DNA of 64,000 nucleotides from an uncultured Acidobacteriota bacterium. GTDB taxonomy: Bacteria > Acidobacteriota > Terriglobia > UBA7540. The DNA lies in assembly GCA_963804995.1 (NCBI GenBank), contig CAWDSK010000003.1:1376001-1440000 (forward strand), read 5' to 3'. The notes beneath the pieces were generated by a model. That model was not told the origin of the DNA. It saw only the letters and a list, made by a program, of their open reading frames with translations, and made no database searches. Of this stretch, positions 54,136 to 57,164 are shown piece by piece. The position numbers were made by a program, and so were the translations under genes. Position 1 is the first letter of the stretch. The number at the start of each line of letters is the position of its first letter.

Positions 54136-54441
54136 ATGACCGTCACCGTTAGAAACAAAACACCGTTGGTGGTACCCCGCGCGATTCGTCGCCGTGCCGG
54201 TTTCAAGGGCGGCGAGGAGTTGGAGGTGAAGGCTTCCGGTGGGGTCATCACGATACTCCCCAAATTGCCCACTGCTCGCGACGAGTACACGCCCGCCCAG
54301 CGCCGCGTCATCGATGCCCGTTTAGCCGAAGCCCGCAAGGGTCCTTATCATGGGCCGTTCAAAACCGCTGACGAAGCCATTCAGTTTGTCCGCAAAGAAA
54401 TCAAAAGCCGGAGAGGCAGCAAGCGCGGGACAGGAACCTAA
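54136..54441 (+). CDS. AbrB/MazE-type antitoxin
   Basis: LVVPRAIRRRAGFKGGEELEV...VITILP swapped-hairpin; upstream of RelE-like gene. Confidence 0.8.
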   Translation: MTVTVRNKTPLVVPRAIRRRAGFKGGEELEVKASGGVITILPKLPTARDEYTPAQRRVIDARLAEARKGPYHGPFKTADEAIQFVRKEIKSRRGSKRGTGT

Positions 54442-54444
54442 TCG

Positions 54445-54690
54445 ATGAAGGTCGCTCTATCGGACCGTGCGATCGAATCATTGGCAGAGGCTCCACCCAG
54501 CGTCCAGCGGGCTTTTGAAAAGCAGATCCGGTTCTTAATGAACAACCTGCAGCATCCGTCCCTCCACGCTAAGAAATACGACGAATCCCGAAGCCTCTGG
54601 CAGGCGAGAGTTAACAAGGACTGGAGGTTCTACTTTAAAATTTCCGGTGACATCTACCTAGTCGAGGATGTCATTCCGCATCCAAAATAG
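54445..54690 (+). CDS. RelE/ParE superfamily toxin
   Basis: 81 aa; HPSLHAKKY...WQARVNKDWRFYF. Confidence 0.8.
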   Translation: MKVALSDRAIESLAEAPPSVQRAFEKQIRFLMNNLQHPSLHAKKYDESRSLWQARVNKDWRFYFKISGDIYLVEDVIPHPK

Positions 54691-54900: not shown

Positions 54901-55833
54901 GTGAAGCCGGACTCCGACCCTCCCCTTCCACGATCTCCCGATGATCCCGACAACCTTCGTCGCCTGCGCGAGGATGCCTTACGCCGCCTGGAAGATGAGG
55001 AGCGCCCATCCCCGGCCGCGGTGTATGGAGGACCGCCCCCGGTCGACAACCTACCAGCCCCAGTGTACGGCGGGCCGGCCCCGGTGTATGGCGGACCGCC
55101 CCCGGTCAACCGCCGGCGGACTCTGTGGGCACTTCTGCTGCTGGCGCTGGGCATGGTGGGGGCCTTCGTCGCCCGGCTGTTCAGAAGGCGCCGCATTGTC
55201 CCTGATGGGTATGGGCAGTCCAGGCCGCCGGCGCCGGTGTATGGAGGGCCTCCGATACCACCGCCGCAACCAACCCCGGTGCAGCCTGACGGCGGAGCGC
55301 AGACCTTGACCGGGGCCATACAAACTCACAATGGCCATTTGTTGACCGCCGTGAACGGTGGAGGACTCGGAGACCCCAAATCGGCGCCCCAGGGAGTGGC
55401 CCTCTCAACCGGTGCAACCACCGCCGGGCCCTTCGAGACATTTACGCTGGTTTGGGTGGATAAGTCTGCGAACACGTTTGCGCTAAAGACCCACGACGGC
55501 CACTTCGTCACTGCCGTGAAAGGCGGCGGCATCGGCGGACCTGACAGCGACCAATCTCCCGTTCATACGGACGTTACAGCGATCGGGCCTGAGGAAACGT
55601 TTACCATCACTCTGCTGGCCGACAACATCCACGCCACGATTCAGACAGCGGATGGCAGGCATTTCCTCAGCGCCGTCAACGGAGGAGGTGTGGGTGGTTC
55701 GAACCAAGTGCCCATTCACACCGATGCCACCACCATGGGAGCGGGGGCAGTATTCCAGCTTATCCTGGCTCGGCAGCCGGAGCGTATGCCGGCGCCCGTG
55801 TACGGAGGGCCGCCTCCCAAGCGTCCCGGCTAA
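54901..55833 (+). CDS. Putative splicease substrate: Pro-rich protein with five VYGGP motifs, one TM helix and a fascin-like beta-trefoil domain
   Basis: (A/P)VYGGP at codons starting 55021, 55063, 55084, 55237, 55798; TM LWALLLLALGMVGAFVA; three internal repeats T.(N/D)G(H)..(T/S)AV.GGG.G...T..T..G...F; GAGG RBS. Confidence 0.75.
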   Translation: MKPDSDPPLPRSPDDPDNLRRLREDALRRLEDEERPSPAAVYGGPPPVDNLPAPVYGGPAPVYGGPPPVNRRRTLWALLLLALGMVGAFVARLFRRRRIVPDGYGQSRPPAPVYGGPPIPPPQPTPVQPDGGAQTLTGAIQTHNGHLLTAVNGGGLGDPKSAPQGVALSTGATTAGPFETFTLVWVDKSANTFALKTHDGHFVTAVKGGGIGGPDSDQSPVHTDVTAIGPEETFTITLLADNIHATIQTADGRHFLSAVNGGGVGGSNQVPIHTDATTMGAGAVFQLILARQPERMPAPVYGGPPPKRPG

Positions 55834-55913
55834 AGCTCCGCCCCCGGACTGATGCAGGATTGGCGGCCTGTCAAGCCCATCAAGACTCGCCCGACTAGTT
55901 TTTTTGAATTCCT

Positions 55914-57164
55914 ATGAAGCCTTTGCGCTACGTCTATGCCGTCTGGGAACTTACCCTGCAATGCAACCTCGGTTGTGTGCATTGCGGTTCACGGGCGGCA
56001 AAGGCACGCGCCGAGGAGCTTTCTACGGCTGAAGCTCTCAACCTGGTTCGGCAAATGCAAGAGGCCGGGGTCACGGAAGTTACGCTCATTGGTGGTGAGG
56101 CGTTTCTGAGGCCGGATTGGCTGGTCATCGTCAAGGCGATTCGCGAGGCGGGACTATCTTGCACACTCACCACGGGCGGGTATGGCATCTCCGCCACGAC
56201 CGCGGAGAACATGCGCGAAGCTGGGATTCAGCAAGTCTCCGTATCCATCGACGGCACGCGTGAAACACATGACTGGCTGCGCGGGAAAAACGGGTCTTGG
56301 GACGCTTGCTTTGCCACCTTGCGCCATCTGCGACGGGCGGCGATTCCAATTTCCTGCAATAGCCAGATTAACCGGCTTTCAGCGCCGGAGTTGCCTTTGA
56401 TCTACGCGGATATTGTTGAGGCCGGTTGCCGGGCGTGGCAGCTCGCCATGACCGTACCCATGGGGCGTGCGGCGGACCGGCCCGAAATCCTGTTACAGCC
56501 ATCGGAATTGCTGGAGGTGTTCCCGCTCCTGAACGAGCTTGCCGGTTGGGCCAAGCGCGACGGATTGCTTTTCTATCCTGGCAACAACATCGGATATTAC
56601 GGGCCCTATGAGCGGCGTCTGCGGAGTATGCAAGGGGCTGGCGCGATCTGGGCAGGCTGCCAGGCGGGTATGAATACCCTTGGCATTGAAGCCAATGGGG
56701 CCATTAAGGGTTGCCCTTCTCTGCCGACGTCGACCTATGTCGGAGGCAACATTCGAGAAAAACCGCTGCGGGAAATTCTTGACACCGCGGAGCTTGAAAT
56801 CAACGCGCACCAGGGAACGCCCCAGGGCGTCTCGCACTTGTGGGGCTTTTGCCGTAATTGCGAGTACGCGGAGTTGTGCCGCGGGGGCTGCACCTGGACT
56901 GCCCATGTTTTCTTCGGCCAACCAGGAAACAATCCGTATTGCCATCATCGAGCCCTGATGCGGAAAAAAGACGGCATGCGGGAGCGGCTGATTCTTGAAA
57001 CTCGCGCCCCGGGGGAGCCGTTTGACCACGGCAGATTCGCTCTCAAGGAAGAGCCCACCCGCGCACCTTGGCCGGACGAAGATCCCCACCGCTTTGTCGC
57101 GGATCGTATTCAGTGGTCGCGCTCTTCATCGGCGGCCAGCGCCGTGCTTCCCATTCTGGGTTAG
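55914..57164 (+). CDS. Radical SAM/SPASM peptide maturase (PlpX/splicease-like group)
   Basis: YAVWELTLQCNLGCVHCGSRA, PGNNIGYYGPYE, GCQAG...KGCPSL, WGFCRNCEYAELCRGGCTWT, NNPYCHHRAL. Confidence 0.88.
   Translation: MKPLRYVYAVWELTLQCNLGCVHCGSRAAKARAEELSTAEALNLVRQMQEAGVTEVTLIGGEAFLRPDWLVIVKAIREAGLSCTLTTGGYGISATTAENMREAGIQQVSVSIDGTRETHDWLRGKNGSWDACFATLRHLRRAAIPISCNSQINRLSAPELPLIYADIVEAGCRAWQLAMTVPMGRAADRPEILLQPSELLEVFPLLNELAGWAKRDGLLFYPGNNIGYYGPYERRLRSMQGAGAIWAGCQAGMNTLGIEANGAIKGCPSLPTSTYVGGNIREKPLREILDTAELEINAHQGTPQGVSHLWGFCRNCEYAELCRGGCTWTAHVFFGQPGNNPYCHHRALMRKKDGMRERLILETRAPGEPFDHGRFALKEEPTRAPWPDEDPHRFVADRIQWSRSSSAASAVLPILG

Follow-up and report, generated by a model that had tools for sequence, protein, structure and literature searches.

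A stretch of 64,000 nucleotides from an uncultured Acidobacteriota bacterium (assembly GCA_963804995.1, contig CAWDSK010000003.1, positions 1,376,001 to 1,440,000; hereafter the window) carries two adjoining genes on its plus strand that are a conserved two-gene system and, judged by sequence, fall within the two-gene class of spliceotides, ribosomal products from which tyramine is excised to leave a ketoamide. Gene 1 (54901..55833, GTG start) encodes a putative precursor of 310 amino acids made up of a leader helix, three VYGGP motifs, a twin-arginine-like membrane helix, a fourth motif, a beta-trefoil and a fifth motif. Gene 2 (55914..57164) encodes a radical S-adenosylmethionine (SAM)/SPASM enzyme of 416 amino acids from the PlpX/PcpX splicease group and is the sole strong TIGR04103 match in the genome. 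We somewhat favor the view that this is an Acidobacteriota spliceotide system whose product would be a membrane-tethered protease inhibitor with several warheads. An earlier note made from the DNA letters (the original prediction) had proposed a two-gene unit, and both open reading frames (ORFs) were found as claimed, on the same strand and 80 nt apart. Its enzyme and dedicated substrate held up, but it gave too much weight to the trefoil; the two more interesting features, a Y-like leader and a twin-arginine-like motif, had escaped it.

Gene 2 belongs to the splicease group

In hidden Markov model (HMM) comparisons, gene 2 scored 656.6 bits against TIGR04103, below the equivalog cutoff of 725 bits, compared with 394.9 bits against TIGR03913 and at most 148 bits against every other family; TIGR04103 thus outscored the next family by more than 260 bits. 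Radical SAM enzymes of cofactor biosynthesis (PqqE, NirJ, AhbD, and MoaA) were considered and rejected, with scores of no more than 146 bits. The predicted grouping with spliceases rather than with PqqE, NirJ, or Ahb was therefore upheld by the scores, and the tree described below agrees. The enzyme motifs named in the original prediction were all present in the translation. The three cysteines of the CxxxCxxC motif (C17, C21, and C24) and the SPASM cysteines (C249, C267, C313, C316, C322, C326, and C343) were invariant in 47 aligned relatives.

Over 401 residues, gene 2 shares 60% identity with an enzyme encoded on a Nostoc plasmid between a Nif11 precursor with an LYG motif and a 71-residue Y-like gene. 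Identity to cyanobacterial TIGR04103 enzymes was 60 to 64%, versus 44 to 48% to TIGR03913-type enzymes, and a by-eye comparison with PcpX (PMC11414181 supplement) revealed long identical stretches, such as EVTLIGGEAFLRPDWL and GNNPYCHHRAL. A search for a solved splicease structure found none, the nearest solved proteins being SkfB, BlsE, and PqqE. A quickly built maximum-likelihood tree with 49 rows, drawn from enzymes other than the characterized ones, placed gene 2 inside a 29-row clade (Shimodaira-Hasegawa approximate likelihood-ratio support [SH-aLRT], 94). The sister group comprised the cyanobacterial TIGR04103-type enzymes together with a 58%-identical enzyme from locus L004 (SH-aLRT 93; joint node 92); enzymes of the TIGR03913 type and those carrying fused YG repeats fell outside both sister clades.

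PlpX-type enzymes are described as excising tyramine at XYG sites (PMC11002830, PMC9811515, PMC10533398). By homology, gene 2 very probably splices tyramine from V-Y-G sites in the same way. In the mechanism that we propose, this would be the second step, with excision in the cytoplasm (C8H9NO, −135.07 Da) converting V-Y-G sites, up to five of them, to Val-derived alpha-keto-beta-amides.

The VYGGP motifs of gene 1 differ only synonymously and are conserved in a precursor family

The five (A/P)VYGGP repeats counted in the original prediction are borne out. Three lie on the N-terminal side of the membrane helix, at Tyr42 (55021..55035), Tyr56 (55063..55077), and Tyr63 (55084..55098); Tyr114 (55237..55251) marks the site next after the helix, which varies least across the precursor family; and Tyr301 (55798..55812) marks a C-terminal site, all on the plus strand. 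Motif 1 reads AAVYGGP and the other four APVYGGP, and gene 1 has an additional GYG at residues 103 to 105. A six-frame scan of the 7.55-Mb genome found VYGGP 10 times, 5 of them inside gene 1. The five 15-nt copies differ exclusively at third codon positions in 10/10 pairwise comparisons, by one to three differences per pair, as the claim of synonymous codon variation had it. A chance repeat is ruled out by the share of genomic VYGGP in this one ORF together with the synonymous-only differences. All five motifs sit in low-confidence linkers of the structure model.

A profile of the precursor N terminus retrieved 78 clusters at 50% identity, the weakest of which probably include a few unrelated proteins. 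A hand-picked alignment of 71 rows covers 51 of these hits; fragments and tail-anchored, helix-less, or doubtful rows were left out. Y114 and G115 were conserved at 90% or more; a site after the helix was present in 70 of the 71 rows and a motif before it in 53. Of 220 motifs in the precursor family, 180 have Val at P1, and the commonest P4-P1 sequence is Pro-Ala-Pro-Val. Motif number ranges from one to five among close homologues and varies through short duplication.

Precursor and enzyme occur together

Of the 133 host-family genomes, 4 carry the enzyme, all of them in the host genus (4/29), and in the same 4 a strong gene 1 match adjoins it. In one of these (G422), frameshifts or stops break up both genes, and assembly errors are possible. 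Weak gene 1 matches in G482 (E = 4e-4) and at G421 C19 (E = 6e-4) proved to be unrelated long ORFs with neither leader nor motifs and were not counted. At an E value of 1e-80, the enzyme was present in 4 of 401 genomes of a phylum sample, including one member of the gene 2 clade (G392), whose family gave 1 hit in 301 genomes; the family of a further carrier (G823) gave 5 in 301, four of them within the gene 2 clade. A class-wide search with the precursor profile, scoring five candidates per genome, gave 3 hits in 401 genomes, all in the host genus. The relatives found by name are Acidobacteriota; a pair in Granulicella rosea (NCBI naming; WP_089406887.1 and WP_089406888.1) falls within the gene 2 clade.

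The precursor lies directly upstream of the enzyme in 9/9 genomes whose enzyme is at least 69% identical to gene 2 (G000, G421, G422, G428, G392, G823, G935, G946, and G1042); the named records L001, L003, and L005 were left out of this count to avoid counting loci twice. A metagenome scan with the precursor confirmed at least 3 of 595 candidates, and in 3/3 the enzyme or its first residues follow. The remaining flanking genes vary from locus to locus. Gene 1 thus behaves as a dedicated substrate of the gene 2 enzyme, as the original prediction had proposed on the basis of this one locus. At loci with flanking DNA, no motif-bearing homologue was observed apart from the radical SAM gene, and gene 1 had no Nif11 match, in line with the earlier view that the substrate is something other than a Nif11-type precursor.

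The leader may be a built-in PlpY-like element

Residues 7 to 34 of gene 1 (54919..55002, plus strand) comprise an LPR sequence and an amphipathic helix, which conservation, a complex model, and weak similarity to Y proteins suggest to be a PlpY-like element for docking on the splicease. In the 71-row alignment, A26 was invariant, and P10, R21, L22, and R23 were conserved at 90% or more; the structure model places a helix at residues 16 to 34. A model of the enzyme in complex with gene 1 residues 1 to 68 scored 0.87, against 0.00 for the best control, with runs sharing at least 61% of contacts and a partner predicted local distance difference test (pLDDT) value of at least 55. The mark applied to this score is reached by 116/157 solved versus 2/215 mismatched pairs and is a rough guide here, where our own alignments were used. 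The confident modeled interface joins precursor residues 7 to 34 to enzyme residues around 229 to 256 and 297 to 321.

PlpY and PcpY likewise have an LPR followed by a helix (PMC11414181), and some precursor relatives carry LPREGW or LPREGF, near the LPRSGW of Nostoc Y proteins. When about 7,556 sequences were ranked with the leader profile, 12 of 13 Nostoc Y proteins fell within the top 19, at weak scores. Several points weigh against equating the two elements. The best match reached only 9.7 bits (E = 0.28), hhalign gave probabilities of 0.9% and 20%, the 13 Nostoc Y sequences are close kin of one another, and the reverse search showed no enrichment. Nor did the confident contacts in the complex model include the motifs. 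Richter et al. (2024, PMC11414181) describe Y as an activating helix, with a like helix in the leader of two-gene systems. The complex model supports docking, and by analogy with that work the leader would substitute for PlpY; in the first step of our mechanism, the first 34 residues of the precursor would dock on the enzyme and take over the task of cyanobacterial PlpY. The lack of a separate PlpY would then be explained by a Y-like helix built into the N terminus of gene 1. The original prediction was right that no free Y gene adjoins the pair, but it overlooked the Y-like leader.

A conserved twin-arginine-like motif precedes the membrane helix

The hydrophobic helix (residues about 75 to 94; 72 to 95 in the structure model) and its Arg-rich flank (95 to 105) occupy 55123..55215, preceded by a twin-arginine-like motif, N70-R71-R72-R73-T74-L75 (55108..55125; both on the plus strand), for which the family consensus is T-R-R-W-T-L-R/K. 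The transmembrane anchor of the original prediction is therefore present as a hydrophobic helix, but the conserved motif on it had gone unseen. R71 and R72 were invariant in 26/26 rows of a first alignment, and the pair was present in 64/71 rows of the larger one. For a comparison free of manual selection, we used 54 helix-bearing profile hits and, as controls, 225 single-pass proteins from the host genome whose helix lies at a similar depth (from our own rough gene calls). An RR pair before the hydrophobic segment occurred in 40/54 hits versus 21/225 controls, and the strict pattern [ST]RRxx[LIVMF] in 28/54 versus 4/225. Lys filled 1 of the 142 cells of the two RR columns in the 71 rows, versus 32 of 156 basic residues after the helix. 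Past the hydrophobic region, gene 1 has the basic sequence RLFRRRR at residues 92 to 98. A signal-peptidase site is possible, with uncertainty, after G105; at the aligned position, P0012, P0014, P0015, P0023, and P0025 read VYA|Q or AYA|Q, and AxA-type sites occur in the less hydrophobic precursor relatives. The host genome encodes TatC, which scored above cutoff, and has about 100 matches above cutoff to the twin-arginine translocation (Tat) signal model TIGR01409.

A radical SAM enzyme requires the SAM, Fe-S clusters, and reductant of the cytoplasm. With the enzyme confined there and a site following the helix in 70/71 rows, export, if any, must therefore come after modification, and this is the mechanistic ground for expecting Tat. 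As the third step, helix 72-95 would anchor the protein, and the twin-arginine motif together with the Arg-rich far flank would delay Sec and hand the protein over to Tat, leaving sites 4 and 5 and the folded trefoil outside and sites 1 to 3 inside. The Tat consensus is given as S-R-R-x-F-L-K, and internal or uncleaved Tat signals and Sec-stalling basic residues are described for Rieske proteins (PMC7317946).

Several findings weigh against Tat export. Tat families were not among the matches listed for the 71 rows (for Pfam, 25 of 32 families), and the gene 1 site was not among the 145 TIGR01409 hits in the genome, for which 150 of 345 candidates were scored. The consensus Phe position is Thr or Ser in the precursor family, and the motif lies 70 residues into gene 1. 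The helix has a hydrophobicity of 2.44 (family median, 2.49), far above the RRxF-type signals of this genome (median, 1.19; 90th percentile, 1.59; n = 133); 15 of the 71 relatives have values below 2.0. RR is missing in 14/54 of the unselected helix-bearing hits, and in 10 unselected hits every motif precedes the helix, several of these having a C-terminal helix and no RR. Weighing these findings, we give export of gene 1 through Tat slightly less than an even chance.

The best-surviving alternative, to which we assign a clearly smaller though real share of probability, keeps the splicing unchanged and takes the helix as a plain Sec/YidC anchor or a re-entrant segment, with RRW serving as an interface or enzyme-contact motif. 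The ketoamides would then lie chiefly on the cytoplasmic face and act on host membrane proteases or quality control. The high hydrophobicity of the helix, the failure of the Tat HMMs to match, the motif before the helix in 53/71 rows, and tail-anchored relatives whose motifs all precede a C-terminal helix (P0162, P0165, P0167, P0169, and P0175) speak for this explanation. Less easily accommodated are the RR pair that is not swapped for Lys, the enrichment of the strict pattern over controls, and the other contexts of the trefoil, which suggest an extracytoplasmic module (see below).

The tail-anchored proteins, which also include P0177 and P0189, form a plan of their own, with an LPREGF/W-type leader, two to four motifs, and the C-terminal helix; all their motifs would lie on one side of the membrane.

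The trefoil is an optional cargo in a modular family

The trefoil of gene 1 (residues 133 to 292; 55297..55776, plus strand) resembles fascin, CBM92, and DUF7910 and appears to be an optional cargo. In a structure model built on 45 sequences, it had pLDDT values above 90. Compared with CBM92/bacterial fascin-like structures (7ZOH and 7ZON), it gave a VIA-align Z score of 7.5 and a root mean square deviation of 2.3 Å over 91 residues at 15 to 19% identity; the Foldseek match had an E value of 1.5e-4. A Z score below 8 puts the match level with other trefoils. A sequence search for solved relatives of gene 1 returned noise only (E = 0.3 to 0.8). CBM92 is reported to bind glucans via the Trp of three WExF motifs, and one carrageenan-binding member likewise has no WExF (PMC11039641). 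Gene 1 has FETF, EETF, and GAVF at these positions, and thus Trp at 0/3 sites. At the three sites, motif-bearing trefoils have Trp in 0/23, 12/21, and 0/21 sequences, compared with 63/92, 73/92, and 76/91 for motif-less ones; the motif-bearing group is closely related, so that its Trp losses are not independent events. Since Trp is missing at the WExF sites, multivalent sugar binding by the gene 1 trefoil is unlikely.

Most of the family lacks this domain: 69 of the 78 profile hits are 230 amino acids or shorter, and a whole trefoil occurred in 1/78. The usual architecture is a leader, VYGGP, RR and the hydrophobic helix, VYGGP, and a Pro-rich tail with further motifs, and P0153 fits this entire plan into 86 residues. 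The trefoil sits between motifs 4 and 5 in gene 1 and about 16 close relatives (52 to 78% identity). A second cargo, a different domain of 200 residues, follows a single PQYGA site in six proteins (P0152, P0172, P0173, P0176, P0188, and P0191), which have the same leader and RR signal and AxA-type sites; the site often follows a Cys, and one member (L010:2712-3596, minus strand) lies upstream of an enzyme. This domain had no Pfam or Atlas hit, and its single-sequence model was unusable (pLDDT 37.7). Because most relatives are short and an unrelated second cargo exists, we rejected the trefoil as the defining part of the system. The folded domain, stressed in the original prediction, is in our mechanism an exchangeable spacer or a weak binding module and would not be the functional core.

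Two proteins, P0023 and P0025, keep the helix and trefoil, have lost the YG motifs, and have a decayed leader and an RR signal with an AYA site; their C-terminal domain resembles that of P0031, in which it has a weak PepSY match. Signal and trefoil were apparently reused following motif loss. Motif-less versions of the trefoil occur in papain-family proteases and in PepSY-like, ferritin-like, and TIR proteins, and elsewhere in proteins with N-terminal hydrophobic signals. Its occurrence with such signals and in papain-family proteases suggests an extracytoplasmic module.

Four weak profile hits (P0180, P0183, P0184, and P0190) have other architectures, with YGGP repeats behind lipoprotein-like signals (one with an N-terminal CxxC zinc ribbon) or YGPPP repeats around a helix, and are perhaps substrates of other splicease clades.

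The variable motif number also bears on a second alternative, in which gene 1 is a multi-core precursor of a ribosomally synthesized and posttranslationally modified peptide (RiPP) and housekeeping or signal peptidases free short, Pro-rich ketoamide peptides, the helix and trefoil being mere carriers. The one to five motifs, their number varying through short duplication, the short and Pro-rich build of most relatives, the possible signal-peptidase sites in some of them, and a subtilase-type gene seen by eye upstream at one locus (L026) would all suit it. We nevertheless regard it as improbable: the inspected loci had no conserved protease or transporter gene, a conserved cleavage motif between repeats was not seen in the alignments, and two distinct folded cargos are retained in frame. 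The product may well be the intact membrane-bound protein, on which our sequence analysis and the original prediction agree.

A proposed function in protease inhibition

The spliced product would carry Ala-Pro-Val-ketoamide, an elastase-substrate sequence. Spliced Rheinheimera peptides are reported to inhibit elastase, chymotrypsin, and cathepsin B, and the unspliced ones are reported not to do so (PMC11626197). In the fourth step of the mechanism, the Pro-Ala-Pro-Val-ketoamide would act as a substrate-like trap for elastase-type serine proteases that take Val at P1. Inhibition of Val-preferring proteases, for example those of soil competitors or predators, is on balance probable. Secreted serine proteases of soil bacteria with a preference for Val, such as the alpha-lytic protease of Lysobacter, are a plausible target, host membrane proteases being the alternative.

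Two points temper this proposal. Pro or Ala before X is also found in cyanobacterial substrates (PMC11414181); because they share Pro/Ala at P2, the likeness to AAPV may partly reflect enzyme preference, and only Val is distinctive. In addition, the DYG of RcsA stays unspliced (PMC11626197), so that not every YG reacts in known systems. The complete combination, in which an enzyme-activating leader fused to an internal twin-arginine signal permits cytoplasmic splicing, folded export through Tat, and display of a multivalent Ala-Pro-Val-ketoamide membrane "armour" against elastase-type proteases, with a slot for different folded cargo domains, is a tentative proposal that we consider doubtful as a whole.

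About as improbable as the multi-core precursor is a third alternative, in which the ketoamide binds metal or reacts as a carbonyl (forming cross-links with amines of the envelope, tethering cargo domains), with no role as a protease warhead. The ketoamide is described as a unique electrophile in proteins (PMC9811515), and in the second-cargo subfamily the lone Q-Y-G right behind the signal, often beside Cys, resembles an attachment point. In the accounts cited here, however, every tested spliceotide inhibits proteases, and P1 Val is strongly conserved. Least probable of all is different chemistry on the Tyr motif, such as a cross-link or backbone cleavage: the gene 2 clade is separate from the cyanobacterial enzymes, the score is under the family cutoff, and we know of no characterized member of the clade, but the enzyme is nearer to the cyanobacterial TIGR04103 enzymes than to the TIGR03913 type and the substrate motif is the canonical XYG.

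Neighboring genes and distant enzyme loci

Upstream of gene 1, an HMM scan identified an AbrB/MazE-like gene, a RelE/ParE-like gene, and a short-chain dehydrogenase/reductase gene; downstream of gene 2 lies an inositol-monophosphatase-family gene on the opposite strand. The original prediction was correct that no protease, exporter, or PlpY-like gene stands alongside: none adjoins gene 1 or gene 2 in the window. A Y-protein query against the genome gave a single weak match, away from the locus (E = 0.12), and a scan for promoters and terminators at the locus gave signals at chance level. The downstream phosphatase gene was found in 1/29 genus genomes at E = 1e-80, so no empty insertion site can be defined. 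The AbrB/MazE-like and RelE/ParE-like genes (54136-54441 and 54445-54690, plus strand; weak HMM matches), directly upstream of the precursor, are a probable type II toxin-antitoxin pair, and such a pair was not seen at the other loci inspected. The segment 57205-57590 holds 99-bp units in tandem, with GC hairpins and copies in inverted orientation; they have 118 matches genome-wide and are a dispersed element resembling repetitive extragenic palindromes or miniature inverted-repeat transposable elements, with no relation to the two-gene system.

Enzymes at 41 to 58% identity (L004, L006 to L008, L011 to L013, and L042) are accompanied by different precursors or carry fused YG repeats, and the leader profile had no match at the distant-enzyme loci checked (G824, G310, and G040) or at the L004 ORF. 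That ORF (L004:3564-3965), upstream of the 58%-identical enzyme, has three MYGMPNP repeats and no helix. Distant splicease-like enzymes from Myxococcota and one deltaproteobacterium (L006:3965-5719, L007:3932-5800, and L008:3938-5971) carry five to seven YG motifs, mainly YGV/YGI repeats, in their own C-terminal extension, combining enzyme and substrate in one chain. The more distant enzymes at L011:1447-4107 and L042 (41 to 53% identity) are followed, by eye, by a carbamoyltransferase-like gene and a B12-type radical SAM gene, respectively; these loci appear to be larger tailoring clusters of another clade.

Comparison with known systems and implications

The system shares with type I spliceotides (PlpX/PlpY/PlpA and PcpX/PcpY/PcpA; Pleurocapsa; TIGR04103) the enzyme family and its motifs, XYG sites in a Pro/Ala context with several sites per precursor (two in PcpA), and an LPR-helix element that, as modeled here, would dock on the enzyme. 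Unlike in type I systems, X is Val rather than Met or Leu, there is no neighboring peptidase-exporter, and gene 1 includes a membrane helix and a twin-arginine-like motif, with folded domains as an option. Because the enzyme scores below the cutoff and the locus has neither a Nif11 leader in gene 1 nor a separate Y gene, we do not regard the system as a type I member. In having two genes and a leader helix that probably takes the place of Y, it resembles the two-gene spliceotides of types II, III, and V (RhaX/RhaA, RcsX, and RasX; Scott et al. 2022; Richter et al. 2024), although RhaA is described as a soluble peptide with a single site and a length of about 65 residues (PMC11414181).

Bufferins offer a precedent for export of a protein-like RiPP by a general pathway, Sec (10.1101/2024.03.18.585515). 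Like gene 1, they are protein-like precursors modified in the cytoplasm and, as described there, have no dedicated transporter or protease; unlike bufferins, which have an N-terminal Sec signal and are modified on Cys by a multinuclear nonheme iron-dependent oxidase, gene 1 has an internal, Tat-like signal behind the leader and modification sites. Spliceotides are otherwise counted among the users of peptidase-containing transporters (PMC10885120). The gene 1 helix recalls the internal or uncleaved Tat signals of Rieske proteins (PMC7317946), in which the twin-arginine helix is not N-terminal or is not cleaved and the following positive charges hinder Sec, but those helices have low hydrophobicity and lead cofactor domains, whereas that of gene 1 has high hydrophobicity and no Phe at the consensus position. 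The trefoil shares its fold and the xExF motifs at repeat ends with CBM92/bacterial fascin-like trefoils (7ZOH and 7ZON; PMC11039641) and DUF7910, and differs from CBM92 in lacking the binding Trp at all three sites and in its low identity.

According to reviews, 27 spliceotide systems have been characterized and 939 predicted. That spliceases act on proteins is probably no novelty in itself, as the title of the 2022 survey speaks of "peptides and proteins." Our literature search found neither a membrane-anchored or twin-arginine spliceotide nor this Acidobacteriota family, which Scott et al. (2022, Chem 8:2659) may list.

Final spliceotide products in native hosts are described as elusive in a 2022 review (PMC9811515). 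Because the product of this system, with no dedicated protease or exporter, should stay intact on membranes, it becomes possible to test in which natural form a ribosomal ketoamide occurs and what it targets. If the Tat step is true, modified ribosomal products would have a second general pathway out of the cytoplasm, next to the Sec route of bufferins. PAPVYGGPP, a short tag found in N-terminal, internal, and C-terminal positions around a folded domain and served by a built-in activating helix, is a candidate tool for making Val-ketoamide proteins. If the armour reading is also true, these Acidobacteriota would possess a natural, genetically encoded means of putting ketoamides on exported proteins.

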